Shown: positions 1-29,467 of the stretch, one piece after another
Layout: each line of letters starts with the position of its first letter
Numbering within the stretch: position 1 is the stretch's first letter
IMG/VR virus record: IMGVR_UViG_3300037247_000086
Location: 1 to 30,830 of that record
Reading direction: 5' to 3' (one strand)
Source of the DNA: a virus
Lineage: Duplodnaviria > Caudoviricetes
Length of the DNA: 30,830 bases
Made by a program: the position numbers and the translations under genes
Notes under the pieces: generated by a model
What the model was told of the DNA's origin: nothing
The model's database searches: none
Seen by the model: the letters and a program-made list of their open reading frames with translations, nothing else

Positions 1-3000
1 TGGCTTTACCGTCAATCTTGAGCATGAATACTTCGTCAGCATTCTGGACTTCACCATAATCAATGCGCTCTACAACCATACCGGTCTTTTTGTCCAAATC
101 CTTACGCATCTTGAACGTGCCAACCTCCCATAAATCCTTGTTTGGATTTGCCTTGGCAAGTTCGTATAATCCGCGCCCAAGAGAGTTCTTCTCACCACGG
201 ATTAATGATGCTTTGTAATCGGCTGTGATGTTGCTCAAAATATCTGCCGGTCTGGTTGTCCTGCCTAAAGCCCTACGGACTTCAGTGCCACGAATATCCA
301 TACCCTTGCCAACTGAACCAAACTTCTCGTCTTCGGGTGACTCTTCCCATCCCTTCAACGGTACATAGGTTTCGTTAAAGTTGGTTTTCTTTCCCCAATC
401 AGCCAAGACTTCAGGTATTAACAACTGGTAATCAGAATAGTTTTTGCGGGTTGCATCGGTTATCTGGCGCACATATTCAGCCAGTTTTTTGTACGTCTTG
501 GCCTGTGGCCCTGATTCGATTTCCTTAACAATTTTTGCAGCCTCGGCATTGGTCATGCCTGAACCGGAATCATTCGATGGGTCGCGTGTGCTTATCAGCG
601 CATTGCGCGAAGGCGCGTGCAGAGCGTATAGATAATTGCCAATCTCGGAATTTGTAATACCGTTACGCGCTGCCAATTTCAGCATAGGCTCAAGAGTGTT
701 GCGCTCAAGTTGTTCAAACCTGTCACCGACGCGTCCGTAAATCAGAGACTCGCGCTCATAGACCTGCATAAAATCGGACACAGCATTGCCGCCAGATTCT
801 ATCGCTTCAATAATTCGCCTAACCGGAATCATCCTATCCTGCAATTGTTGACGCAAATCCATGCGTACTTTCTTGGTGCCTTCGTCCAACTTCTTCCAGA
901 ACTTTAATTCATCATTATGCAACGCCTGTTTCAGCGTCATGGAAGGTAATGTCCAGTTATCGAAAGCGGTTTCAGGATTGTGCGATGGCTTTGTGCTCAA
1001 TAGCGGCTTTTCACTAGCAAGCAACCTAGCACTCTCACTCTCTGCCGGTGCGAAGGCTGCGTTTATTGAGCGTATGTTTTTAGGGTCGAAAATAACGGTT
1101 ATATCTGTTATCACATGCCCCTCATCGGTATATCCGTCTAGTGTGTTTTCCAACAAAACAGAGTCATGCCCACTCTCTTTTGCCTTAGCAATAACGTCAG
1201 CGTAACTCGCATCTCTATACTCACGCCCTTTGTAGTCGTGCGTGAATTGCTTTCCTGTCCTCAAATATACGGGCAGCACATTCCCCCCATAGGGGTCTAT
1301 GATACTTGGCAGTCCCAGCAGTTTTAGTATGCCCTCATTAAATTTCTTGTATCCGCCAAAGGTTGCTTTGTTTAGTTTCTCGATAAACTTGAATGACCCA
1401 TCAGTGTACGGGTCGGAACGCTCTGCATAACTTGAGGCTGTGCCTGCGTCCCGCACAAAGAAGAACCCCATTTTAGCTGACTTGGCCTCGGTTTTTTTGC
1501 CCATCATTTCTACATCAAACGCACGTATGTCGCCCGATGTTCCGTGATACCAAATAAACTCTGTATCGAACCCTTGCTCTTTTGCTCTTTTCGCTTGACT
1601 TTCGTAATCCATCGGCAGGGTTGACGGTGGTGCGCGTTCAGCCTGTGCGCCAACCAGTTCGCCACCAGCGGCTTCAGATGACCTCCGAATGATACCGTAT
1701 ATGTCAGCATCAGACATGCCGCTTACGTCACGCTTAAGCAGTTTGGATAGGACTCGCTTAACCTTTTCGTAATAGCGCGCAAGTGCTCCGCGCCATGCCG
1801 ATTTCATTCCGGTCGGAACCTTGACCTGATACCTGTCCTGAATATTCTCGTAGTTCTCGGTCTGACGGGCTGCATCCAGTTCGGCCAAGGCTTCGTCGGT
1901 TGCGATACGTTGCGCTATCTGTTCGCTGTACTCACCCTTTTTAACATCGTCGGCAAGTTTACGTTGCTGGTAAACCTTGTTGGCAATGCGGTCTACAACC
2001 TTGTTGGTTCTCGCTTCGTCAAGGGCTTTTGTAATGGTGCTACCGTAGGCTACGCGCATCCCTCTATGCAGAGCTTCATGATAGCCTACCCACACAACTC
2101 GGTCTTCATTACTAAACTGGTCAGCAAATAAGAAGATAGTATCCGCATTCGGGTCGCCCTCAATATTCGGATAGTACATGCCCTCGATTACATCACCCGT
2201 CTGAGTGCGTAACGGTTCGGCTAATTCGCTTTTCTCCAAATCAGCAATAGAACCCACAACCTTAATCTTATCCGCTACCGGCTTGTTGAAGGTTTTGTCT
2301 ACTATAGCTTGGGTTTTCTCTACTGATAGACCGGATGGGGTTGCTTTGGTTTTGCTTGCGAGTAAATCTGCGCTGCTTTTCTTGGCGGGGTCAAATGCTG
2401 CTTCTGTCTTCCGCGCCTGTGACGGGTCAAACATAACAACGTGCTCAGTATCTTGGTCAATGCCTTCCATAGCATGAGGACGCTTAGAACCATATCCAAA
2501 TTTGTCATATACAGTTGCGTCAATAACGCCATCAAAACCAGCGTCCTGAAGGGCTTGACGGTAAACCTCGGAATTAATAATTCTTCCTTGGTCATCCTCT
2601 GCGTACCAAAGTAACGAGTCATCCTTAGCCATCTCAGTGCCACGCATGATTTTGTCTAAGTCTTTGGCTGAAATACCGCCGTCATACACATAGTCTGCAA
2701 GACGGTCAATCAGTCCGTCAACATCATGTCCTGAGTATCGCAATGAATTTATGAAGTCAGGCAATGCGCCTTCAGGCTCGTTCTCATAACCAGCCTCTAT
2801 TGCTAAGTCTCTGGCTTCTTCTTTTATGGCATCATCGTATTCTTCTTCGGTATCAAAATCCTCACGACTTTGACTTGATGTGCTCCGCGCCTCATCCATG
2901 AAATCAGCAGGGTCTTCTTGTTCAGATTCAGACTCAACGAACGAAGGCTTTTCACCACCAAGTCTAAACGGATTGTCCAACTTGACCTTCAGTTGCATAA

Positions 3001-5869
3001 TGTTTTCTTTGCCGCCTGCCAATTCTTCTTCTGCAATCTCTTTGGCCGCTACATCTGGCAAGTCTTTTAGGGCATCGCCCTGATAATAAAAGCCCTCACC
3101 ATATTCACTTTCGCTTTGGATTTCTTCTGCTCTGCGTTCAATCTTGTTGGTTAGGTCTGCCCCCTCAAGACTTGAATAATTGATGCTCGCATCGTCTTCA
3201 GATGTCGTGCTGTAAATTCCCACACCCCAATCGCTTTCAGGGTTTGATTTTGACATATCAAAAGCGTCAATGTCGTATGTCGTGGCATGGAATACGTCTC
3301 TAGTGAACCCCATATCTTTAGCACGCGCCATGCGACTTGCTTCATCCATTGGCAGGGTAGAGAGCAACGGCTTTTCAGGTTTCAGCTTAACAACCGCTTC
3401 CTGCTTTTCCTCAAACAAGTCAGCCGGTCTTTCACCAGCAAATAACTCACCCTTGCCTGCTTCTACAGGTACGGTTTCAATTCCAGGTTTGCCACTGCGC
3501 TTTTCAGTCTTCTCACGCGCTTTGTCGGCGAGTGCTTGTTGCTTGCTTACGTCTTCGGTGAGGGGGCTGGGCGGGATTTCAGCGGCTTCTTCTGCTTGAG
3601 CAGTTTCCGTGCGTGCGCCAATATCTCTTTCGCTGTCTTGTTCACTTACAGTCTCCATAGCGGCGGCAAGTTGCTGAACACCTTGCGCTACCGTAATCTC
3701 TTTATTATCAATCTTTTCGGCAATAGAATCAACATCTACGCCTGCCGATAGCCCTTGTGTCATCCAATCGGTGAGTGCGCGTGTTTCGCTATCTGATTCC
3801 GGTATGTAATCTTCTTTTGCGTATAACGGCTCTTTGCTGAGTTCAACTTCCTGCCAATCTTCCTCTACCTTCGCCCGTTCAATTTCACCAATGGCGTTTT
3901 CAGCTTCATTGATTTGGTTTTCAAGACTGATAGCATCAGCGTACCGTCCATCGGCATTGCCGTTAATAACGTCATTGATAAACGCTAAGGCATCATTGGC
4001 ATCGACACGCCCGTACTCATCGTATATTTCCTGCGGGATAGCAAAGCCGTTTTTAGAATCCCGTTCTTCCATCAGGAACTCAGCAACATCATCTAGCGTC
4101 ATGCCGCCCTTCGCCCTGAATAAAGGCTTACTGAACGGCATACCTGTCTTCGCACCTATCCGGCTTTCAAGCCTCCTGTCCTTAACCGCTTCAGGGTCAA
4201 TGCCGTTTGAAATCCAATCATCACGATTCAACCCGCCACGCTTGGCAAGGTAAGTCAGGATGTCATCCTTGAGCGTGTCAATCTTGATTGTTTCAACACC
4301 AGCGCCCATGCCAATTTCAATATCCAGTTTGCGCCCTACCTGCTGTTTCAGCTTGCGAACATGCTGTTGGATGGAATCAATATCGTCGGGCTTGTATGGC
4401 GCAACCTTCGGCATTTCGGTTGGAGGCTGAACAACATCTTCCTCAATGAGCGCTTCCGCACGCGCACGCTGTCCCAATACCGCATCTGGAAGCTCCGTAT
4501 CGGCTACGAAAGGCTTAACCAATGCTGGGATGGCAGTTTCGGGAGATATGGGCTGTATAGGCTCTGCAACGCGCTTAACGGCAGGAACTACAGCCCTTGC
4601 ACCCGCAGCATCAATGTCTTTCTTCGCTTGGTTAAAGCCTGCGTCGAAAGTAGGCAATGCTCCGCCCGTTGGGGCTTCTGTGTATTCAATTTGTGGGGCT
4701 TCTGTTGCACCCATTAAAGAGGCTTCAGGTAGCGCAATACCCGGTTGCGCCCTGCCCCGCCGCTTAATACCGAATGCTGATGTTATCGTGGTCAGCAAGA
4801 AACCAAGAACGCCGCCGACTTCGGCTGACTCATCCACGCCTTGCCATAAACTACGCTCTTCATCGTAGCCAACAATCTCTTTTGCGGTCCAGTTGTTTGC
4901 GAAATCCATCAAGCCCTCTTGGAATGCCTCTCCAATAGCGCCTACCGTTCCGGCAATACCAACCTTGGCTATCTTGCTTTTCACGCGGTCAGTGACGTTT
5001 CTGCTAAACCAACCGCCCGTAGCCTTATTCAAGCGAGAGAAAGCGAACTCAATTGGGGCAACTTCCGTTAAGCCCCATGCAGCGCCAATGTTTGCTGAGT
5101 GCATGGCATCTTCAAATGAAGCGCCACTCTGGATAGCGTCTGCAAACTGAGCGTCGGCATTCATTCCAGCACCCGCCAAAGCACCAACAAAGGGACTAAC
5201 CAATGTTGTTCCCATAAATACCGCCATTGAACCAAGCCCCTGTGCCGCCTTTGACAAAAACAGTTCATCATACTTAGGGTTGGTTTCAAACGTCTTGTTA
5301 GACCAATCGACTAATTTCTGACCCTCTTTGTAAACACGCGCATCTTGTATTTCGGCCAATCCTGGCGCTGTTTCCTGTGCGATCCTGCGAATGCTGTCTA
5401 GTTCTTCTTGCGCCTTATCACCACGTAGCGCCCTGAATCCGCGAATATCAATAGCCTGTTCTTTCGGGTCTGTGAACTGTGGGGAGAAAGGATGGTCTAG
5501 TTTTTCTCTGCGTTGGCGTAGGTCATCAACTATTGAAAATCCTTTTACCATTCCACCAGCGCCACCGACAAAACCCCTGCCGACCCTTGCCGCTAAATCT
5601 TCACCACGCCCAATCTCAGGCTCTCCGCCCATAAGAGAAGCATCAGGAACTTCAGCCGGTCGCCCCACATCGGATGGGTCAAAATCCAAGGTTGTCTTTA
5701 TTGCAGGCGTGAACTCGCCAAACGCCGCATCGGGCATCGGCATGAAGGCGCTTACGAACTCCCTCTTGTCGGAACCAGAATAGAATTTGTTGTACAACGC
5801 ATCCGCTAAATCGGTATCGGACGTACTTTCATACTGCGGATACTGTTGACGGAACTCTGTAATGTTCAT
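1..5869 (-). CDS. Giant polyvalent virion/ejected protein, 3'-truncated (>1956 aa): N-terminal ejection-protein region, ART-like domain 1, zincin metallopeptidase, ART-like domain 2, LPD38-like region
   Basis: ATG at 5869 abuts the upstream TAA. Manual translation (MNITEFRQQYPQYESTSDTDLADALYNKFYS...) shows no stop before the window edge, which explains its absence from the ORF track. Motifs: VFHAT...GIYST...GFDGV...HVVMFDPSQAR (~2370-3360); VGYHEALHRG (HEALH 2066-2080); WYHGT...GFFF...NVLPVYL...GHDSV...TVIFDPKNIRS (~1015-1625); YLYALHAPSRN...GSGMTNAEA...YVPLKG...RRALGR (<850). Confidence 0.88.
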   Translation of the reverse strand, partial: MNITEFRQQYPQYESTSDTDLADALYNKFYSGSDKREFVSAFMPMPDAAFGEFTPAIKTTLDFDPSDVGRPAEVPDASLMGGEPEIGRGEDLAARVGRGFVGGAGGMVKGFSIVDDLRQRREKLDHPFSPQFTDPKEQAIDIRGFRALRGDKAQEELDSIRRIAQETAPGLAEIQDARVYKEGQKLVDWSNKTFETNPKYDELFLSKAAQGLGSMAVFMGTTLVSPFVGALAGAGMNADAQFADAIQSGASFEDAMHSANIGAAWGLTEVAPIEFAFSRLNKATGGWFSRNVTDRVKSKIAKVGIAGTVGAIGEAFQEGLMDFANNWTAKEIVGYDEERSLWQGVDESAEVGGVLGFLLTTITSAFGIKRRGRAQPGIALPEASLMGATEAPQIEYTEAPTGGALPTFDAGFNQAKKDIDAAGARAVVPAVKRVAEPIQPISPETAIPALVKPFVADTELPDAVLGQRARAEALIEEDVVQPPTEMPKVAPYKPDDIDSIQQHVRKLKQQVGRKLDIEIGMGAGVETIKIDTLKDDILTYLAKRGGLNRDDWISNGIDPEAVKDRRLESRIGAKTGMPFSKPLFRAKGGMTLDDVAEFLMEERDSKNGFAIPQEIYDEYGRVDANDALAFINDVINGNADGRYADAISLENQINEAENAIGEIERAKVEEDWQEVELSKEPLYAKEDYIPESDSETRALTDWMTQGLSAGVDVDSIAEKIDNKEITVAQGVQQLAAAMETVSEQDSERDIGARTETAQAEEAAEIPPSPLTEDVSKQQALADKAREKTEKRSGKPGIETVPVEAGKGELFAGERPADLFEEKQEAVVKLKPEKPLLSTLPMDEASRMARAKDMGFTRDVFHATTYDIDAFDMSKSNPESDWGVGIYSTTSEDDASINYSSLEGADLTNKIERRAEEIQSESEYGEGFYYQGDALKDLPDVAAKEIAEEELAGGKENIMQLKVKLDNPFRLGGEKPSFVESESEQEDPADFMDEARSTSSQSREDFDTEEEYDDAIKEEARDLAIEAGYENEPEGALPDFINSLRYSGHDVDGLIDRLADYVYDGGISAKDLDKIMRGTEMAKDDSLLWYAEDDQGRIINSEVYRQALQDAGFDGVIDATVYDKFGYGSKRPHAMEGIDQDTEHVVMFDPSQARKTEAAFDPAKKSSADLLASKTKATPSGLSVEKTQAIVDKTFNKPVADKIKVVGSIADLEKSELAEPLRTQTGDVIEGMYYPNIEGDPNADTIFLFADQFSNEDRVVWVGYHEALHRGMRVAYGSTITKALDEARTNKVVDRIANKVYQQRKLADDVKKGEYSEQIAQRIATDEALAELDAARQTENYENIQDRYQVKVPTGMKSAWRGALARYYEKVKRVLSKLLKRDVSGMSDADIYGIIRRSSEAAGGELVGAQAERAPPSTLPMDYESQAKRAKEQGFDTEFIWYHGTSGDIRAFDVEMMGKKTEAKSAKMGFFFVRDAGTASSYAERSDPYTDGSFKFIEKLNKATFGGYKKFNEGILKLLGLPSIIDPYGGNVLPVYLRTGKQFTHDYKGREYRDASYADVIAKAKESGHDSVLLENTLDGYTDEGHVITDITVIFDPKNIRSINAAFAPAESESARLLASEKPLLSTKPSHNPETAFDNWTLPSMTLKQALHNDELKFWKKLDEGTKKVRMDLRQQLQDRMIPVRRIIEAIESGGNAVSDFMQVYERESLIYGRVGDRFEQLERNTLEPMLKLAARNGITNSEIGNYLYALHAPSRNALISTRDPSNDSGSGMTNAEAAKIVKEIESGPQAKTYKKLAEYVRQITDATRKNYSDYQLLIPEVLADWGKKTNFNETYVPLKGWEESPEDEKFGSVGKGMDIRGTEVRRALGRTTRPADILSNITADYKASLIRGEKNSLGRGLYELAKANPNKDLWEVGTFKMRKDLDKKTGMVVERIDYGEVQNADEVFMLKIDGKA

Positions 5870-16064: not shown

Positions 16065-17060
16065 TCATGGATTCAAGGTAACAGCGAACTCGCCGCGTGC
16101 CAGCCAAGTTTCATTGAGGATTTGGTTAACCTGATACCAGAGAACGCCAATATCGACGAACTTGCCAGTAGGATCGGCACCCTTAACAGGACCGGTCAAG
16201 ATGTTAGGCTTAACAGAATCAAAGCCTGCCAAAATGCACGTTCCATAGGAGTCCATTCCAGCAACTACCAGTGGGTATACATCATTCTTGGTTCCGTTGT
16301 TGATCTTGGAACCATCGGACGTTGCACCGCCACCGCTTACAGGGAATAACTGCGGTGTCAGCACGAAGCAAACATCTTCCACCTGACCAAACTCGTAAGG
16401 TACTGACTTGCCGTTACCCTTTTCGGATACGTGGACAAAGCCAGGAAGATTACGAATGTCAGACTTCATGTTGGTATGACCCAACGCGACATATGCTGCC
16501 TCGGTTGGAACTGTGCCTTCAAAGTTGCCGCCCTTGTTGATTTTGTTAAACCAACTGGCCTTGGCATCATCCAGTGCGCGGGTGATCTTGCGAATTCGAC
16601 CCAGCGTAATGGCGGTGTCAACCTGTGCACGTGCGGTATGAGCCGCTGTGTCGTAAAATACTGACGTACCGGTGATGATTTCGTTCCATGTCAGAAGTTC
16701 GTTCACGTTTATGATGAACTCAGCCTGCAAGGTAGCTGCATCTTTCACAGCCGCCTGTTCAGACAAACGCCACTTCTTGCTTGAAACCCGTACAAGGTGC
16801 TCGTATTCCTTGATAGCCATCTGGACATTTTCATAGTCCATACCTACGGCTTCAGGGACCACGCCCTCAGTAGCTTCGGTATCATCGAAACCAAAAGGAA
16901 CCAGACGGTCAATGGAGAGTGTGTCAGACTCGTTTTGTGGCAAAGTAAATTTCTTTGCATACCTGTCAAGACAGGCAATTGGTCCCGCATGTTTCAACAG
17001 TTCTTTTTTGTGAAGAACGTTTGTCGCTTGGGCGGGATTACTATATGTTGCAATAGGCAT
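16065..17060 (-). CDS. Major capsid protein, N4-gp56 family, 331 aa
   Basis: Motifs LPQN...TEGVVP, YVALGHTNMKSDIRNLPGF, EFGQVEDVCFVLTP, DVYPLVVAG.DSYG, ADPTG and ILNETWLARGE match the family pattern; GGAGG RBS; follows the scaffold gene. Confidence 0.9.
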   Translation of the reverse strand: MPIATYSNPAQATNVLHKKELLKHAGPIACLDRYAKKFTLPQNESDTLSIDRLVPFGFDDTEATEGVVPEAVGMDYENVQMAIKEYEHLVRVSSKKWRLSEQAAVKDAATLQAEFIINVNELLTWNEIITGTSVFYDTAAHTARAQVDTAITLGRIRKITRALDDAKASWFNKINKGGNFEGTVPTEAAYVALGHTNMKSDIRNLPGFVHVSEKGNGKSVPYEFGQVEDVCFVLTPQLFPVSGGGATSDGSKINNGTKNDVYPLVVAGMDSYGTCILAGFDSVKPNILTGPVKGADPTGKFVDIGVLWYQVNQILNETWLARGEFAVTLNP

Positions 17061-18357: not shown

Positions 18358-18633
18358 TCAAGTGTTGTCGGTGTTGAGATTGGGTATACCAAAATCATCA
18401 CCGGTTACAGGTGTGCGGTTGCGCTCCTGCTTGATAAGTTTGGGCAGTCTTAACAGTTCCTTTAACCTGATAATGTCGCCAAGTGCTAAATCTAATTCAC
18501 GCTGTTCAAGCTTCTTGTCCTCGCGGATTTCTCTCATTCGCCCCAATTCAAAATTAGCCCACGCTTCAACTGACTGCCATGCGGGATTGCCGGGTTCGAT
18601 AACCGCTAAATCTTGTAGTTTGAATTTAGCCAT
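18358..18633 (-). CDS. Small hypothetical protein between portal and scaffold (~91 aa)
   Basis: ATG 18633 overlaps the portal 3' end. A small helical gene at this position is typical of these podoviruses. Confidence 0.65.
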   Translation of the reverse strand: MAKFKLQDLAVIEPGNPAWQSVEAWANFELGRMREIREDKKLEQRELDLALGDIIRLKELLRLPKLIKQERNRTPVTGDDFGIPNLNTDNT

Positions 18634-20941
18634 GAGAGTCAAAACCCATTTCCATGTTCTTGCGCGTCTGTGCGAGTTTCTCTGCTTCCAGGCTTGCCAT
18701 GTAACCCTTCGTCAGTTCTTCACGGCGTTCCTTTAACCGCCCCAAAAGAAGCTTCGTTTCATTTGCGCGGTTGCCAAGTTCAAACTTGGATTGAATGTCT
18801 GACAGCTTAATGTCTCCGGACTTGGCCGCTTCAATGGCGCTGCCCTGTAGTTTCATGTCCTGAACTTTGAGTTCAACTTCCATGCGGTCATAAGACAACT
18901 GAGTTTCCGTGTACTCTTTCTCACTCATGCCGCCATCGCCTTCACCCTTGCCATTTGCTCTGGACATAAGCTCGGCTGCCTCTGCCTTCAACTTATTAAG
19001 CTCGGCCATTTCTTTCTCGCTCGGCTTCTGGGCATCCTTCATTTCTTCTTCGGATTTCATCAGGTCATCAGCGTCAACCTCTGCTGCCTTCAGGATGCTC
19101 TTTAACAGTTTGTCGTCCTTCATGTACGGTGCAAAGCGGTCATTGGTGGTCATGTCAGCAATCATTATCAAGTTCTGGGTCTGCATGTCCTTCACAACCA
19201 ACTTGGTTGCGCCCATTGGCTTAATCGTCATGTCGCCCTTGGCTTCATCATCGTCAAGGTAAATCATGTTGTAATCGTACAAAGCTGATATTGACGGCTC
19301 GATAATCTCATCGTCGTAGGACTGGGCAATACGGCGCTGAATAACGTTCTGTGTATTTATTAACATCGCCACCGACTTGAGCGCCATCTTAGTCTCTGCT
19401 TCTGTGGGCGCTCCCTGTGCAAGTTGCGTCCAAGACAGTTCTTCGTCGGCGTTCTGCCTTGCGCGCTCATGGACTGCGGTCAGTGCATCAATTCGGGTAT
19501 CAATCTGGAACATCTGGAATGCGTCATTAACTTTCTTTTCAGGGTCGGTCAAGTACCACTGTTTCATGCCACCAGCTATTTCTTCAGAACCATCAGCAGG
19601 CTCTACAGCGCCCTTATCGCGCACCAACATCGGCCCAGCACTCAGGGCAGCGTTGTGTAGAATCATGTGCCATGTGGACTGTATAACGCGGTCTGAGTCG
19701 CGCATGAAGTAAGGTACACCATAGCCAAATACGGTGGTTTCTGATTCTTCGTAGTTCCAGACGTAATACGGTAGTCGGTACGCGCCTTCAAGGGCATGTC
19801 GTTTAATCTTCAGCAGGCGGGTATTGCAGAACCAAGCTTCGATAATCGGGTCAACAATATCCAGTTCATCGTCAACATCAACGCCAAGATTCTCCATGTC
19901 CTCGCGGTTTAACGATCCGGTGTACTTCCATACTGAATAGCGGTTATCGGTCGGCATGGTTTCGCCGGTTACATTCGCACGCTGAATCAATGAACTCGAA
20001 TACTCTCCGCTATGGTTAGGTTGTTCCTTCAAGACCTCCGCAATCATTTCGTGGTCAAATCCAGGCAGAAGCCTTAATTCCTGAATCTCGCGCCGGTTCA
20101 TCAACTGGTCAATGAATACCCCTTCACACCTAGAGATATGTTCTGCCGGTAATGGATAGAAGCTCCACGGGTCAATGCACTTGAACTCAGGCATTGGCTC
20201 TTCTTCCATCTGGACAACCCACTGACCATCAGGTAGACGGTGACGGGCTTTCTTGTATGAGCCTGCAACCACCGGCCCCTCAAGTACGCCAGTGCCAATC
20301 TTGCAGCCATCCATGATGACTTTGCGCTGTTCGGAGTTATACCGGCTTTCAGTAAGTTGGTCATCCATGTGAGTACGCATATGGTCTGCGCGTTTCTCTG
20401 CGTCCTCAATCTCCTGCTTTGCCAAGTCAGCCTTGGTTACCGGTCGCATTTGGGGCATAGGCGGCTGTGGTCGTGTCTGTGGTGCGCCTTGCACTACTTC
20501 AGGATTCTGTTCCGGCCCCGGTTGCTGGCTCTCATCTGGAACCATCGCTATCTGACCGGTGCTCGGGTCAGTGACGTATGAATTGTCATCCATCATCTTG
20601 ACCATGCTCGGAACCGGCGTGCTGGAAATATCCCAACTGCGCTCATTGCTCGGAACCAGCATATTGATAATGCGTGCTGCAATGGAGAGTGTTCGGGTTC
20701 GGGTCAGGTGAACAACCGGTGGAGAACGGCGTACTGCGCTTCGATAGTCGGTATCACCTTTGGATATTCGGTCAAGGGTATTGCCCTCGAACTGCTGTAG
20801 GTCACGCAACCATCTGGACTCTACTTCTGACCTGTCGCTTACTGCTGTGTCCCGCTTGCCCTCAAGTACCTGTACTATCTCGGTAATGGGCGCATCCTGC
20901 TTGGACATTTCCAGCCCTTGCTTGTGCTCGTACAAGTCCAT
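18626..20941 (-). CDS. Portal protein, 771 aa
   Basis: Size and position; motifs DGCKIGTGVLEGP, IDPWSFYP and FGYGVPYFMRD; long C-terminal coiled coil (barrel). Confidence 0.88.
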   Translation of the reverse strand: MDLYEHKQGLEMSKQDAPITEIVQVLEGKRDTAVSDRSEVESRWLRDLQQFEGNTLDRISKGDTDYRSAVRRSPPVVHLTRTRTLSIAARIINMLVPSNERSWDISSTPVPSMVKMMDDNSYVTDPSTGQIAMVPDESQQPGPEQNPEVVQGAPQTRPQPPMPQMRPVTKADLAKQEIEDAEKRADHMRTHMDDQLTESRYNSEQRKVIMDGCKIGTGVLEGPVVAGSYKKARHRLPDGQWVVQMEEEPMPEFKCIDPWSFYPLPAEHISRCEGVFIDQLMNRREIQELRLLPGFDHEMIAEVLKEQPNHSGEYSSSLIQRANVTGETMPTDNRYSVWKYTGSLNREDMENLGVDVDDELDIVDPIIEAWFCNTRLLKIKRHALEGAYRLPYYVWNYEESETTVFGYGVPYFMRDSDRVIQSTWHMILHNAALSAGPMLVRDKGAVEPADGSEEIAGGMKQWYLTDPEKKVNDAFQMFQIDTRIDALTAVHERARQNADEELSWTQLAQGAPTEAETKMALKSVAMLINTQNVIQRRIAQSYDDEIIEPSISALYDYNMIYLDDDEAKGDMTIKPMGATKLVVKDMQTQNLIMIADMTTNDRFAPYMKDDKLLKSILKAAEVDADDLMKSEEEMKDAQKPSEKEMAELNKLKAEAAELMSRANGKGEGDGGMSEKEYTETQLSYDRMEVELKVQDMKLQGSAIEAAKSGDIKLSDIQSKFELGNRANETKLLLGRLKERREELTKGYMASLEAEKLAQTRKNMEMGFDSHG

Positions 20942-21095
20942 TTTCTATGATTGCTCCACGGGTTGTCCCTAATATATCACGCGGGTGGGAGATTTCCTAC
21001 CCGGATAGTAAATACCCACACTTTAGACAGGCTTTCGCCTACCCGTAGGTATAGTTATTTGAGAGTTATTCTACTAAATGAGAATTACTGTAGAT

Positions 21096-21278
21096 TAAGC
21101 GGGGCAGGCCAGCATATATTCGGCAATGAACAACTGACATTGAACCGCAAAGACGCGCCCTTTTGATTTAAGGGTATGACCTGCCTTATTTAGCTGCCCC
21201 GCTTAGAAGTGCTGGCTTGCGGGAGAATGGTTAACAACTCCACTTGCGAGACCTTAAGACTCGCTACAAAACCAGCAC
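21096..21278. ncRNA. Candidate structured RNA elements: two adjacent multibranch folds
   Basis: Perfect 12-bp inverted repeat 21096-21107/21194-21205 enclosing two hairpins, then a 7-bp stem 21209-21215/21272-21278 enclosing two hairpins, all in a 383-nt gap with no convincing ORF. Confidence 0.45.
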
Positions 21279-21324
21279 ATCTAAACAGTCGGGGTTGCTG
21301 GCAGGCGTATCTTGTATCCGAACC

Positions 21325-21690
21325 TCAGTTCCAGCCTTTAATCGGAACCCCAATTTTAACCTTCTTGCCGACTAAATCGTGACCGTACTTGATATTATGC
21401 TCTAATTGCTTGGTCCTTGACATCCCTAAGCTCGGATTGTGTGACCATAGGCCATTTTCGTTCCACGAGCCTAAAGGACAAATGCCAGGTACTTCCTTCT
21501 GTGCGTCTGGATGAAACGCCCCATGAAACTGCGGATAATTCCTTGTTATCTCGCATGTGTCTTCTTTTTCATCGCCACAAAAACAACATTGGGAATAAAT
21601 GGTTAGCGTTTTCTTTGTCCTGCTAGACGCGACATCATGCCAACAACAAGTAGGGTCAGCGCCTTTCTTGCCCTTGCAACTCACGACCAT
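21325..21690 (-). CDS. Hypothetical Cys-rich protein, 121 aa
   Basis: Overlaps the upstream gene end; CCWH...CCFCG is a possible metal site. Confidence 0.55.
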   Translation of the reverse strand: MVVSCKGKKGADPTCCWHDVASSRTKKTLTIYSQCCFCGDEKEDTCEITRNYPQFHGAFHPDAQKEVPGICPLGSWNENGLWSHNPSLGMSRTKQLEHNIKYGHDLVGKKVKIGVPIKGWN

Positions 21691-22025
21691 CTACCCTGTG
21701 GCGGCATTAGGTTTGTCTTGTTGTAGAAGCGTTCAGGCTTATATGCCCTTCCTGCTCGGTTTGGAATCTTTAACAGGTCAGCGGCAAAGTCTGGATGTCC
21801 GTATGCGTAATACACATCGGTTCCTTTTGAAAGCTCTCGCCACACAAGCTTATCCGTAATCCTCCGAATGTCCTCAGCGGTCAGGAGCGGAGCCTCAATG
21901 AACTTAATGTCCTCAACCCTACCATAACTCATGCCTGCACGATTCGTCCCAAACAGCAAAGCAGTGGGAACCGCTACAGCCGCAGCACCTATGCCTACTT
22001 TCTTTAGGAACTCTCTGCGTTTCAT
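21681..22025 (-). CDS. Twin-arginine-signal protein carrying capsid-like and terminase-Walker-A-like segments, 114 aa
   Basis: MKRREFLKK plus a hydrophobic stretch (Tat consensus RRxFLK). Three segments align by eye to the major capsid of this window. Confidence 0.75.
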   Translation of the reverse strand: MKRREFLKKVGIGAAAVAVPTALLFGTNRAGMSYGRVEDIKFIEAPLLTAEDIRRITDKLVWRELSKGTDVYYAYGHPDFAADLLKIPNRAGRAYKPERFYNKTNLMPPQGRWS

Positions 22026-22306
22026 AATTTAGCCACCCACTTTGAACACTCAACTACGATAGAATCTGTCCCTGCATAGTCGTTAACCGATAACGGTACA
22101 TCGCCCCATGTCTTAGCGTCCGGTGGATTCATCATGCGATTGATTCTTTCTGCCGCCTTGCGTTGCTGATTTTCAGCATCCACCAACATTGACAGACCTG
22201 ACGCGGTTCGCTCTGCTGGATGAATCACACCAGCCGCCACCGTCATAGGAATTGCGACTACCGCAGCGCCCATTGCTGTGTTCTTTATGAAGTCTCGACG
22301 TTTCAT
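22022..22306 (-). CDS. Twin-arginine-signal protein carrying portal-like segments, 94 aa
   Basis: MKRRDFIKN, hydrophobic stretch and VAA possible cleavage site; RTASGLSMLVDA motif; ATGA-type overlaps on both sides. Confidence 0.72.
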   Translation of the reverse strand: MKRRDFIKNTAMGAAVVAIPMTVAAGVIHPAERTASGLSMLVDAENQQRKAAERINRMMNPPDAKTWGDVPLSVNDYAGTDSIVVECSKWVAKL

Positions 22307-22770
22307 GATTTTAGTCTCACAGGGAAAGCACCGGTAATTATGCCCTTGTCAGGAAAACCGTAAGGCTTGCCGTCTTTGTCTAAGTATTTGGTGTTTGGTG
22401 GAACTGTCACTTTATACTTTCCGTGAGCGGGAGGCCCTATTCTTGCTATCTTGCTTCGCGGAATAAAGCTCCATCCATCACCACCTGAAACCCTAAAGCA
22501 TCCACTGCCGTCTTTTGTTATGTTGTCAGCCGCCTCCCAAATATAGTGAGGCTCTACCACCGCCACCCCTGACCAGTCTGTTTCCCCGTCCTCGCGCACA
22601 ACCGCAAACTGTTTCCCTATCCTTACGGGAGACTGAACGATGTCGCAAAGCTCTAGGCCGCTTTCGTCAGAGTATTTAACCACAAACGGCAACTCTACAA
22701 ACCCGTGTCTTATCTCGTATTCCGGAATCGGTTTATCATTAACTAAAAATTGCGTCTTTTTTGAAAACAT
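22303..22770 (-). CDS. Hypothetical protein (~155 aa)
   Basis: The track starts it at GTG 22779. ATG 22770, behind AAAGGTGAAGATT, is preferred. Confidence 0.6.
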   Translation of the reverse strand: MFSKKTQFLVNDKPIPEYEIRHGFVELPFVVKYSDESGLELCDIVQSPVRIGKQFAVVREDGETDWSGVAVVEPHYIWEAADNITKDGSGCFRVSGGDGWSFIPRSKIARIGPPAHGKYKVTVPPNTKYLDKDGKPYGFPDKGIITGAFPVRLKS

Positions 22771-22786
22771 AATCTTCACCTTTGCT

Positions 22787-23050
22787 TCACCAATAAAATG
22801 TACGTGGATTATAACTCTCTACCTGAATAAGCAACCTACTCTTTATCCAGTAATCCCTTATGTCTATCAACCAATACCATTTTCTTATGTGCTGTTTGAG
22901 TATGTAGATTGCTCGATTGCTGACCATGTACCAATCAGTATGCGTTGGCGTTATTGGGAGTTTGAATGGTGAAACTATTTGCAAGTCTTCGCAGAACCGC
23001 TTTTTGTCGCTTTCTGATACTTGGTCCCAGTTGATGTCCTGATTTGCCAT
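22787..23050 (-). CDS. Hypothetical Trp-rich protein, 87 aa
   Basis: ORF with an AAAGGCGAAGATT leader, co-oriented with its neighbours. Confidence 0.55.
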   Translation of the reverse strand: MANQDINWDQVSESDKKRFCEDLQIVSPFKLPITPTHTDWYMVSNRAIYILKQHIRKWYWLIDIRDYWIKSRLLIQVESYNPRTFYW

Positions 23051-23106
23051 AATCTTCGCCTTTCAATTAATCACTGTGAGTATACACCCAAATAGGGGGT
23101 TAGGTC

Positions 23107-23265
23107 TTATGTGTTAAAGCCGGTGAAGGTTTGGTGTGCGCCGGAAACCTTGCCGCAACCAGAACACTGGAATGCTACCCAGAGCCGACCGTCATCATCA
23201 TACTTGGTAACAACCCTGCCACCGTTCCAGCCGAACAGGTGGGCTATAAGGTGGATAATGCTCAT
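23107..23265 (-). CDS. Small CxxC protein, 52 aa (below the track cutoff)
   Basis: ATGA overlap with the terL stop; MSIIHLIAHLFGWNGGRVVTKYDDDGRLWVAFQCSGCGKVSGAHQTFTGFNT. Confidence 0.6.
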   Translation of the reverse strand: MSIIHLIAHLFGWNGGRVVTKYDDDGRLWVAFQCSGCGKVSGAHQTFTGFNT

Positions 23266-24716
23266 ATGCTATACCCATCACCAAACTTAGGAACCGATAC
23301 CCTGGATGACGAACGCTTGACCGGCTTGGTCTTGAATGTGGTCATGTTCGATAGCAGGTAGAGTGTTGCGTCCATCAGGTCATCGAAGCTCTTGTCAATC
23401 TTGCCTTCATTGCGGTGGTACGATTCGTATTCCTCGCGCCACATCTGTAGTGTATTAAAAACCTTTAAGTGTCCGGTTTCAACTCTTTGGCGCATTCGGT
23501 AGATATTTGATTCTTGGTCCTGCTTATTAGCCTTGATGAGCTTTAAACCCAAACCCTTGTAAATGTCTATCATCCGCTTGCCATCAGAGGCATTCGTTCC
23601 TGCGGTTTCGGAATTACCCCTAATCCACTTGCCTCGCATATCAATTGCCGAAGCATGGATAGCGGGAAGCTCCTCTTTCATCCGGTGCTCAGAATACAGG
23701 TAGACAATATCATTCTCTCTGTCCCACGCGCCCCACACAACCGCTGTAGGATGAGGACTCCACCCGAAATCCATTCCATACGCTCTGGGCCAGAAATCCG
23801 GTATCTTGAACGGCTTGCAACTTAGAACTTCATCAAAATCTGTAGTGAAGATAGCTCCACTCCCCATTTTAGGTATGCCCCATCTTCGGGCTTTCATTTC
23901 ATGTGCGGGAAACCGTCCTTTGTAAATCTCAATCTTTTCAGGCGTGATATGCGGTACGTTATCCCATGTCAATACACCCTTGTAAACCGAAGGGTCTTGC
24001 CCATTCGCCCGTTTCGTCAGGTCGAGTGTAAGCTCGGTCTGTCCCTTCATTGGGGTATAGGTATTAAACACTACACCCATGTAGTCAAATACGCGCTGTA
24101 CGTTCTCACGATGGATGTCTATGGGTGCCTCTTCGTCTTCCCAAACGTAATGTCGCTTGGTTGCTTCAAATGCGGTCCTGCCTGAATCATACGACTTCAG
24201 GTTGATAATTGAGTTATCACCGGATACGTGCTTGACCATCAGCGTGTCATATAGGTTCGGCGTACCCATAGCTTTCTTGCACTCACCAATAATTAGCCTG
24301 TCTCTAGGGATTAAGCCGGTTCCCATTTCGCGCTCAGGAAAGCCTATCAGTTTAATTTGAACAGAGTCACGTACCGTCTTGCCGTCCTTGCCTGCTACAA
24401 CGCCCGAAGTAGCCCCATCGAACCGCCTACCCTCCCACCAACTCGGATAATCCCCGGTGGCGAAAAGTGCCGCAAGATAAGCACCCGCCTCAGTTTTGCC
24501 CGTTCGATTGCCGCCCAAAATGAAACTTTCCATGAAGGTTTTTGTGGAATTGAAGAAGTTGACAGTCTCACCATACAGGTCACGTCTTAACGGCCCATCA
24601 TCAGGAAACAGGAAGTCTATTCGCCTGAACTTCATACGCTCAAGCATTTCAATCTTCTGCTGTGCCTGCGCTTGGTAGAGTTCTTCCAGATACTTTGGGT
24701 CTGTCTTTTTTGTCAT
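23262..24716 (-). CDS. terL: Terminase large subunit, 484 aa
   Basis: Walker A GGNRTGKT, Walker B YVWEDEE, motif III TYTP, nuclease GMDFG...HPTA and DDLMDATLY. Confidence 0.95.
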   Translation of the reverse strand: MTKKTDPKYLEELYQAQAQQKIEMLERMKFRRIDFLFPDDGPLRRDLYGETVNFFNSTKTFMESFILGGNRTGKTEAGAYLAALFATGDYPSWWEGRRFDGATSGVVAGKDGKTVRDSVQIKLIGFPEREMGTGLIPRDRLIIGECKKAMGTPNLYDTLMVKHVSGDNSIINLKSYDSGRTAFEATKRHYVWEDEEAPIDIHRENVQRVFDYMGVVFNTYTPMKGQTELTLDLTKRANGQDPSVYKGVLTWDNVPHITPEKIEIYKGRFPAHEMKARRWGIPKMGSGAIFTTDFDEVLSCKPFKIPDFWPRAYGMDFGWSPHPTAVVWGAWDRENDIVYLYSEHRMKEELPAIHASAIDMRGKWIRGNSETAGTNASDGKRMIDIYKGLGLKLIKANKQDQESNIYRMRQRVETGHLKVFNTLQMWREEYESYHRNEGKIDKSFDDLMDATLYLLSNMTTFKTKPVKRSSSRVSVPKFGDGYSI

Positions 24717-26493: not shown

Positions 26494-26705
26494 GAGTACT
26501 CCCCCAAACTACCCCACGGAAGATATTTGAAGTCAGACTCAGTTTGTAAATCAGGATAGTTCTCTCTAATCCAAATCAACCCGTTCTCTGTATCTGTGCC
26601 TAAGCCTTCATCCCAACAAATACGCCACATCTGCACAAACTCACGGGCAATCTCTCTTGGTATGTACATCTGATTCAAATCCATGCCCATCGCCTTGTCA
26701 CTCAT
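26490..26705 (-). CDS. Hypothetical protein, 71 aa
   Basis: GAGG RBS, ATGA coupling. Confidence 0.6.
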   Translation of the reverse strand: MSDKAMGMDLNQMYIPREIAREFVQMWRICWDEGLGTDTENGLIWIRENYPDLQTESDFKYLPWGSLGEYS

Positions 26706-26893
26706 GCCAGCACCTCGCTCTCCGTGGGTATGGGGTTCTCATCAATGCCGGAAGATAGCGCTCGTGCAATTATAATACAGCCCTCTTTATTGCCTGCACA
26801 TAAAATCTTTCCTACAGATTTAATTCTAACGACATGACTGTATTCGCCGTTTAAATTGCCTGGTTTCTTTCTTACATAAAAAGGAGTCTTCAT
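26702..26893 (-). CDS. Hypothetical protein, 63 aa
   Basis: AAAAGGCGAAAGATT leader; ATGA-coupled to the downstream gene. Confidence 0.55.
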   Translation of the reverse strand: MKTPFYVRKKPGNLNGEYSHVVRIKSVGKILCAGNKEGCIIIARALSSGIDENPIPTESEVLA

Positions 26894-28130: not shown

Positions 28131-28205
28131 TGGCAGGACGAGCTGGATTCGAACCAGCGATGACAGCAGTCAAAGTGCTGTGCCTTACCACTTGGCTACC
28201 GTCCT
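28131..28205 (-). tRNA. tRNA-Gln (anticodon UUG) with encoded CCA
   Basis: AGGACGG TA GCC AAGTGGTAA GGC A CAGCA CT-TTG-AC TGCTG TCATC GCTGG TTCGAAT CCAGC TCGTCCT G CCA folds into a complete cloverleaf. Confidence 0.95.
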
Positions 28206-28939: not shown

Positions 28940-28971
28940 AGCCCCGCGCCTGAGAACCGTGGGGCTTTCTT
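28940..28971 (+). terminator. Rho-independent terminator for the plus-strand island
   Basis: AGCCCCGCG-N9-CGTGGGGCT-TTCTT; one G:U pair is valid only on the plus strand. Confidence 0.65.
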
Positions 28972-29467
28972 ATAGCCGCTCTTCCGCCTCAGCTATCCTA
29001 CGGTCAAGGTCAGCAATAGATTCCTTCAATTCAGCCGTGCTCTGTGGCTCCTGGCCTACCTCACCAACATGTAACTCCTTAACATCTCGCATGTCTGTGT
29101 AGTTCTTCGCAACGAACTGGCTGAACTGTGGATTGTAGTGTCCGTGCAGTGCGTTAACGACAAGAATGCTCTCTGCAATTGCCTTCGCGCGTGCAGTCGC
29201 TACCAAAAACTCAGGGTTCTGCCTAGCCCAATTAGCAATAGTATTCGTGCCTATTCCAATCTTTCTACAGAAGCCTGCGAGTGTTGGTAGGTCGTTTGGT
29301 GTTATACATTGATATTCGTTACCGGTCTTCTCGTTGAGCTTTGTTACTTCTTTATATGGCTGTACGTCGAAGTGTTTAAGCAGTTGTTCGCAGTATTCAG
29401 GCTTGTACTTGGTTGGTTGTCCCCCTGCTGGGGGTAACAGGTCTTTGGGGTCTTTCTTGGCTGTCAT
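28970..29467 (-). CDS. terS: Terminase small subunit, 165 aa
   Basis: GGQPTKYKPEYC start, HTH-like PTLAGFCRKIGIGTNTIANW...PEF, helical oligomerisation region and FVAKN motif; upstream of terL. Confidence 0.82.
   Translation of the reverse strand: MTAKKDPKDLLPPAGGQPTKYKPEYCEQLLKHFDVQPYKEVTKLNEKTGNEYQCITPNDLPTLAGFCRKIGIGTNTIANWARQNPEFLVATARAKAIAESILVVNALHGHYNPQFSQFVAKNYTDMRDVKELHVGEVGQEPQSTAELKESIADLDRRIAEAEERL

Follow-up and report, generated by a model that had tools for sequence, protein, structure and literature searches.

Two small, overlapping genes located between the large terminase (terL) and portal genes of a marine sediment phage were found to join a twin-arginine leader to rearranged segments of head proteins, with one parent family per gene. 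Sequence comparison confirmed that gene B contains three segments derived from the N4-gp56-type capsid family, in altered order, and gene A contains one clear and one borderline segment of the portal family. As a tentative explanation, which we consider plausible rather than probable, both products would act as bait routed to the Tat pathway, binding head-recognising proteins and removing them from the cytoplasm.

The window, that is, the whole stretch of DNA analysed (30,830 nucleotides), is a 30.8-kb linear virus record, around half complete, found in one marine sediment run; no RNA datasets are listed for it. A Logan contig, possibly the source of the record, carried the same sequence with 0 differences. 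All virion genes of the window are on the minus strand, and those considered in this work, together with A and B, were as follows:

28970-29467, minus strand: terS
23262-24716, minus strand: large terminase terL (Pfam Terminase_6N/6C), upstream border of the variable interval
22022-22306, minus strand: gene A, 94 aa, twin-arginine leader plus portal-derived pieces
21681-22025, minus strand: gene B, 114 aa, twin-arginine leader followed by three capsid pieces in altered order
18626-20941, minus strand: portal (phrog_332; Foldseek matches to Pa223, SU10, T7, and N4 portals), parent family of the A pieces
16065-17060, minus strand: major capsid protein, N4-gp56 family, HK97 fold (TIGR04387 175 bits, phrog_1357), parent family of the B pieces

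The model of the window capsid gave Foldseek matches to the capsids of N4, B2, and Moo19. The label of phrog_332 is head-tail adaptor, yet the predicted model of the 18626-20941 product folds as a T7/N4/SU10-like portal.

The interval between terL and portal contains small ORFs of 52, 87, 158, 94 (A), 114 (B), and perhaps 121 aa. A and B are real genes, two translationally coupled ORFs whose overlap is ATGA, and the start of A sits in the TGA of the upstream 158-aa ORF, also as ATGA. Judging only from position and from this ATGA coupling, A and B are presumably expressed in the late operon; promoter-like sites presented no excess (3 found vs. 2.9 expected) and no lysogeny gene was identified in this half-genome record. 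In two close relatives, L002 (terL 75% identical) and L003 (68%), nothing or two unrelated genes were found between terL and portal. This indicated that the interval is variable, and A and B are optional genes that both relatives lack at this site.

Both genes begin with RR-x-F-(I/L)-K followed by a hydrophobic stretch, as the initial annotation had described for two overlapping small genes between terL and portal. No other gene in the record starts in this way. The leaders were delimited as follows:

22232-22306, minus strand: leader of A, residues 1-25 (TIGR01409 20.8 bits; 15-residue hydropathy peak 2.27)
21948-22025, minus strand: leader of B, residues 1-26 (TIGR01409 18.6 bits; 15-residue hydropathy peak 2.04)

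Both scores pass the TIGR01409 cut-off (16.7 bits), the gathering cut-off of Pfam PF10518 was missed (15.9 vs. 22.7 for A, no match for B), and the h-region is moderately hydrophobic in both cases. By eye, a plausible small-x-small cleavage site is present at residues 23-25 of A, and no canonical one in B. Engagement of the Tat pathway by these leaders is predicted from such features. The two leaders share 73% identity over 64 nt; in their first 20 codons 12 residues are identical, 6 of which present a synonymous difference, suggesting selection on the leader protein sequence, and we infer that they are old paralogues kept at the protein level. Over 19 residues, the leader of B also shares 74-84% identity with those of ordinary, longer bacterial proteins.

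In a blind scan of B against 38,880 PHROGs the sole match was phrog_1357, to which the window's own capsid belongs (E = 0.22 for the whole protein and 0.15 for its mature part). Mature B reached 13.4 bits with an HMM of 35 capsids, a score obtained by none of 5000 shuffles (shuffle maximum 5.7), and a jumping alignment that tiled B with 61 capsids gave 28.2 bits (0/1000 shuffles, shuffle maximum 13.2), as compared to 13.0 bits for the best of 75 real small control ORFs on the capsid profile. With 11 family profiles built from N4-type loci, B peaked on the capsid family (25.1, the next one being 6.2). The capsid fragments that the initial annotation had proposed for the gene pair were thereby upheld for B. 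The pieces were the following, with 19.1 bits as the 99th percentile of the best-single-segment null for the capsid tiling of B:

21882-21926, minus strand: B34-48, matching capsid 224-238 (21.9 bits, tiled as B35-48 on 225-238; strands E223-227 and E230-234 in the capsid model)
21798-21896, minus strand: B44-76, matching capsid 107-139 (28.8 bits over 33 residues; best HMM domain 11.2 bits)
21762-21812, minus strand: B72-88, matching capsid 190-206 (23.3 bits; strand 189-194 and helix 196-203)
21684-21761, minus strand: B89-114, tail, with a portal-like match that is not robust (p 0.02 with one profile, 0.35 with another)

The tiling core of the middle piece, B50-71 on capsid 113-134, scored 19.0 bits and rose to 28.8 on extension to B44-76; in the capsid model, the corresponding region covers the latter half of the long helix H101-128 together with strand 134-136. 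This piece overlaps both neighbouring pieces by around 5 residues, where both parents fit. Along B the capsid segments thus follow the rearranged order 224-238, 107-139, 190-206, and they cover 55 of the 88 mature residues. In B72-88 the invariant Arg203 is lost and 4 of 10 conserved columns are matched. The pieces are about as near to the window's own capsid (7/14, 9/22, and 6/17 identical residues) as to the best other capsid (8, 10, and 8, respectively). A portal piece in B would correspond to the tail listed above and was not confirmed.

With 114 aa and no TIGR04387 match, B is not a colinear full-length HK97-fold subunit; judging from its sequence it cannot be a capsid subunit, since it retains around 60 of 331 residues, reordered and diverged, and lacks one that is invariant. 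We also considered whether B could be a clean circular permutation of the capsid axial domain, and discarded this reading: rotating the sequence did not improve the best domain (11.0 vs. 10.8), and B48-60 placed on helix 151-163 gave 8.4 in contrast with 28.8 for B44-76 on 107-139. Elsewhere in the window, a leaderless 63-aa ORF (26702-26893, minus strand) displayed weak capsid-like pieces (capsid 84-95 and 171-187) with 10.0 bits and 0/1000 shuffles, yet it remained under the best real control ORF (13.0).

Gene A scored 17.7 bits against 60 portals, with 0/1000 shuffles reaching this value (shuffle maximum 16.1) and 12.0 bits for the best real control ORF; when the alignment was composed of 44 portals without cultured phages, the score was 14.8 bits (1/1000 shuffles). 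Among the 11 family profiles A peaked on the portal family (13.9, 2/100 shuffles; next 7.1). Portal pieces were retained for A, the second one being borderline:

22157-22216, minus strand: A31-46/50, matching portal 516-532/536 (25.5 bits, 30.2 in another scoring; null 99th percentile 19.9)
22103-22156, minus strand: A51-68, matching portal 87-104 (borderline, 16.2-17.1 bits, p 0.087 and 0.048)

In the predicted portal model, the region matched by A31-50 is the start of a long helix (H514-561), after a low-confidence loop, which from general portal topology we take to be the tunnel loop and kinked helix. Identity of A31-46 was 4/16 to the own portal and 10/16 to the best family member in other phages. 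The region matched by A51-68 would correspond to the end of helix H80-95, a loop, and the start of strand 103-107, and the near-invariant P97 and W103 are kept in it at the correct spacing. In A the C-terminal portal segment precedes the N-terminal one. With 94 aa, around 35 of 771 portal residues and no phrog_332 match, A does not have a full-length portal fold. Capsid pieces in A were not significant (149/1000 shuffles do as well), nor were the pairwise comparisons of A with the own capsid and the own terminase.

A and B had been described as looking like patchworks of capsid, terminase, and portal fragments, each gene being a string of 10-17-aa pieces of core phage proteins. The capsid pieces of B and the portal pieces of A stood, whereas terminase pieces, capsid pieces in A, and the portal piece in the B tail did not; each gene has one parent family, and the actual lengths are 14-33 aa. 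The comparison with shuffled sequences that had been proposed was thus passed by the capsid and portal matches and failed by the terminase ones, which on a profile of 18 terminases only were equalled by 47/1000 shuffles for A and 191/1000 for B. On this profile the scores were 5.9 bits (A) and 5.7 bits (B) vs. 22.8 for the best real control ORF, and a short W-containing motif (A66-71) fits the portal piece equally well. A role at the DNA level, as recombination cassette or CRISPR decoy, was likewise rejected: blastn gave no match to the own structural genes, and codon-aligned identity was 38-55%. No unrelated single fold emerged for A or B, and the design based on virion pieces recurs in unrelated phages; the Atlas models of both passengers were of low confidence (pLDDT 0.33 and 0.44), and Atlas searches gave no usable match.

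The pieces are old, eroded copies that are no longer capsid-like, yet with motifs kept in open, coupled frames. Each capsid piece scored under all 61 sampled capsids (21.9 vs. a minimum of 25.7, 28.8 vs. 42.0, and 23.3 vs. 35.2), and third-position identity of the pieces to the own genes was 21-43% within the codon-aligned 38-55%. B still matches 15 of 28 well-conserved capsid columns, and both frames, A and B, are open. Two of the three capsid pieces come from the best-conserved parts of the protein (86th and 97th percentile), the third one from an averagely conserved region (28th-43rd percentile). No near-identical donor of the pieces appeared, which is weak evidence.

Homologues of A and B were not found among the protein sets, IMG/VR, GenBank phages, and genomes searched. 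The two large protein sets were searched with B only: in the set of 5.8 billion proteins, one of 21 candidates was confirmed, B itself, residues 33-90 of B gave 0/16 long candidates, and among 1.84 billion representatives B retrieved itself and two repeat proteins that scored through summed repeats. None of the pattern matches in IMG/VR was confirmed (0/29 for B and 0/9 for A), and GenBank phages gave only weak matches (E 2-9). From 14 genome matches, 13 share the leader and the remaining one is an unrelated frame.

The same type of leader was then considered in other phages. One strict leader pattern retrieved 0 loci, and a degenerate one gave 120 IMG/VR loci from 29 of the 64 parts of the collection, with 108 distinct ORFs; 72 of these were kept (55-230 aa, with a hydrophobic stretch, two near-duplicates dropped). 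In L079 and L106 the leader stands on pieces of the phage's own coat, in L093 on its own capsid, weakly, in L067 on a tail-sheath piece (E = 7.5e-20), and in L152 on a capsid piece, as also in L090, weakly. The genes in L079 (3710-4024, minus strand) and L106 (560-814, plus strand) carry pieces of the N-terminus of the own P22-type coat, with 11/15 identical residues in L106, and they lie on the strand opposite to the coat gene; late co-expression is therefore not general. The leader gene is located between terL and portal, as in the window, in L037 and L057, and it adjoins the portal gene in the head operon in these two and in L093. In L099 (3482-5040, minus strand) three tandem leader genes directly precede terL and portal, and in L061 (4001-5575, plus strand) a whole 524-aa large terminase (phrog_2) starts with a twin-arginine leader.

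Enrichment of ORFs with RR leaders for head-protein matches, a check proposed in the initial annotation, was modest. With a library of 26 head proteins, 10/72 leader ORFs exceeded z>2 vs. 2/59 controls (p=0.035), but the rank test of the same enrichment gave p 0.37 and the own-locus test 7/48 leader ORFs vs. 8/59 controls. The top PHROG match was a virion family for 5/72 leader ORFs and for 0/58 leaderless neighbours (p 0.049; these controls are the 59 minus one full-length protease), and 1/72 leader ORFs exceeded z>2 with non-virion proteins. Most of the 72 tails presented no detectable virion match. In a hand tally with no control, 21 of 46 leader loci with long flanks had a terL, portal, or capsid gene no more than 4 kb away. 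A set of 160 N4-type capsid loci yielded just 2 plausible leader genes, neither of them related.

Under the bait explanation, A and B would be made together with the late head operon, and their capsid- and portal-derived pieces would bind proteins of the host or of co-resident elements that recognise conserved head-protein segments; the leader would then route the resulting complexes to the membrane or out via Tat, at a distance from the genuine capsid and portal. Either passage or stalling at the membrane would clear the bound protein from the assembly site. Partner binding and a benefit to the phage are presumed in this scheme. According to the available part of one source, Tat can carry partners without a signal (PMC4273604), and the accessible text of another indicates that Tat tolerates small unfolded substrates, exposed hydrophobic stretches stopping transport at the membrane (PMC13673990); exposed hydrophobic pieces of A and B could thus stall export, which counts against the proposal. 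The decoys had originally been proposed to titrate defence sensors such as CapRel and Avs. An Avs decoy is unlikely, because Avs sensors read whole folds and the pieces are short and rearranged, with low-confidence models and no folded trigger core; in the part of PMC13581612 available, at least 12 of 14 Avs families envelop a folded target core, whereas short motifs are what Lit and CapRel recognise. If left in the cytoplasm, a mimic of such a motif would be expected to trigger the sensor, a further objection, so that a decoy is sensible only if the leader removes the complex or if the target is a stoichiometric assembly inhibitor, which could be baited without the risk of triggering. By analogy, the most plausible targets would be sensors of short motifs, or assembly inhibitors that act stoichiometrically in the manner of Tab/Tai, rather than fold-enveloping Avs sensors; prophage and satellite assembly inhibitors and late-expressed counter-proteins do exist, according to the portions of PMC10884400 and PMC11364771 at hand. 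In favour of bait are the significance of the capsid and portal matches, the origin of two capsid pieces in the best-conserved parts of the protein, the conserved columns and open frames kept despite low third-position identity, the apparent selection on the leaders, and the virion pieces behind the same leader in other phages. The loss of the invariant Arg203 in B, the average conservation of one capsid piece, the modest family-wide enrichment, and the leader genes opposite to the coat gene in L079 and L106 also speak against bait, and the decoy idea nevertheless stays our best single guess. The broader proposition, that phages build export-leader bait from segments of their own virion families and that sensors or satellite inhibitors leave as Tat hitchhikers, in a counter-defence by export, seems rather unlikely.

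The tails could instead be eroding passengers of an old mobile leader gene that gains them by illegitimate recombination with nearby head genes, the leader alone working (for instance in an envelope or Tat-occupying function) or little work being done at all, as in neutral gene birth. We regard this as doubtful. The overlaps of around 5 residues between neighbouring pieces are those expected of recombination at short similarities, and the scores of the capsid pieces under every sampled capsid, the proximity of 21/46 leader loci to terL, portal, or capsid in the uncontrolled tally, the many tails without virion match, and the failure to find homologues of A and B in the searches fit as well. 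Silent sites are near background, however, while motif residues and two coupled frames persist, which would be hard to reach by long neutral decay; three capsid segments in a new order fill 55/88 mature residues of B, and the best piece of A is nearer to other phages' portals (10/16) than to its own (4/16). This last observation, along with the closeness of this A piece to the family consensus, would suit dominant-negative inhibitors whose pieces would bind capsid or portal subunits made by related competitor phages and hold these subunits at the membrane, a possibility that we consider unlikely. Assembly blockers encoded by prophages and satellites are known from the available parts of PMC10884400 and PMC11364771, and at some other loci the leader gene runs opposite to the late operon. 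Against such inhibitors, A and B are located in the late operon, ATGA-coupled and with no promoter excess, so that they would be made with the own head proteins; the B pieces resemble the own capsid roughly as much as they do any other, and no lysogeny gene was identified in the half genome.

A role in the phage's own assembly, in which an uncleaved leader would keep newly made portal or capsid subunits at the inner membrane, is very improbable. The position in the head operon beside the portal, repeated in L037, L057, and L093, and the want of a clear cleavage site in B (by eye) would agree with it, but the close relatives L002 and L003 do without A and B between terL and portal, the 160 N4-type capsid loci gave only 2 plausible leader genes, neither related, and the pieces are diverged from the own proteins. 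Finally, it is extremely improbable overall that A and B are just ordinary small membrane proteins of the Tat type whose resemblances arose by chance. This would be in line with the weak PHROG E-values (0.15-0.22), with real control ORFs reaching 22.8 bits on the terminase profile, and with the choice of profiles after matches were seen; in contrast, the blind scan of 38,880 families matched B to the own capsid family alone, the scores of B were reached by 0/5000 and 0/1000 shuffles and surpass the best of 75 real ORFs (28.2 vs. 13.0), and the result for A was obtained with both portal alignments (0/1000 and 1/1000 shuffles). As far as these comparisons indicate, chance is very unlikely, and largely refuted, for B, and somewhat less unlikely for A.

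The individual parts of A and B are known, and the design appears to be undescribed, outside the capsid, portal, and Avs-decoy classes. With Tat signal peptides (TIGR01409, PF10518) and hitchhiker co-export (PaoABC and hydrogenase 2, in the part of PMC4273604 available) both share RR-x-F-(L/I)-K and a short hydrophobic region ending near a proline; unlike Tat substrates, the passenger is a phage-encoded mosaic of virion segments of 70-90 residues with a low-confidence model, not a folded enzyme, and its export is only predicted. B shares three homologous segments with N4-gp56 capsids (TIGR04387, phrog_1357; 9e99, 9d82, 9d7z, and 9bgn), but it is more diverged than any sampled member, with around 60/331 residues in a changed order. 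A shares one clear and one borderline segment with T7/N4/SU10-like portals (phrog_332; 7z44, 6qwp, 9lc1, and the Avs4-bound portal 8dgf), but it retains around 35/771 residues and has no portal fold. Tab/anti-Tab (PMC10884400) and Tai/Ati (PMC11364771) are likewise small accessory phage genes that act on virion assembly or counter such an action during the lytic cycle, a functional analogy; those systems target tails, and the available portions of both papers mention for them no Tat leader or derivation from virion fragments. By family name, no Tab/Tai-named family appeared in the Pfam, PHROG, and NCBIfam scans. Imitation or sequestration is shared with mimic anti-defence proteins (the DNA mimic Ocr, antitoxin mimics, and nucleotide sponges; 10.1101/2025.06.06.658234, PMC13728456, and PMC12409349), although in the accessible parts of these sources known mimics copy DNA, antitoxins, or signals, and none is an own virion protein with an export leader. 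A Tat-type leader on virion-protein pieces was not described in the literature as available, recent anti-defence reviews included (mostly open-access texts without supplements), nor in the portions seen of PMC9712102, PMC13412088, and 10.64898/2026.06.04.730250; in the second of these, as far as its available text goes, tatC had an effect on three Klebsiella phages in which no Tat motifs were found.

Among the core signals that set off bacterial immunity are the capsid and portal proteins, which assembly inhibitors also target and which are hard for phages to change. If the design is widespread, an export leader with conserved capsid or portal pieces would represent a new form of counter-defence or of interference between phages. 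If the bait proposal is true, mosaics such as B would mark the head-protein segments recognised in nature, that is, a natural epitope list; if the tails are only passengers, they would reveal a way in which new genes arise repeatedly in head operons. Under standard annotation, members of this leader-gene family are just a "twin-arginine signal domain protein."

Several minor features were observed around A and B. The 121-aa ORF (21325-21690, minus strand) overlaps the end of B, with no family match and no clear ribosome-binding site; it displayed a weak tiling score of 9.6 on a joint profile (0/100 shuffles) and may not be a gene. Around 380 bases upstream of the portal (20942-21325) contain no convincing ORF and gave no Rfam match, and a perfect 12-nt inverted repeat (21096-21107 and 21194-21205) is located in this region. 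In L003 the same slot between terL and portal (2209-3230, plus strand) is occupied by a look-alike DNA methyltransferase and endonuclease, read by eye and without family assignment. A 16-nt repeat (94%) at 22768-22783 and 23048-23063, where the 158-aa and 87-aa ORFs start, suggests a shared translation start motif and a start of the 158-aa ORF slightly downstream of the listed GTG. The sole Rfam family found in the window corresponded to one tRNA gene (28134-28205, minus strand).
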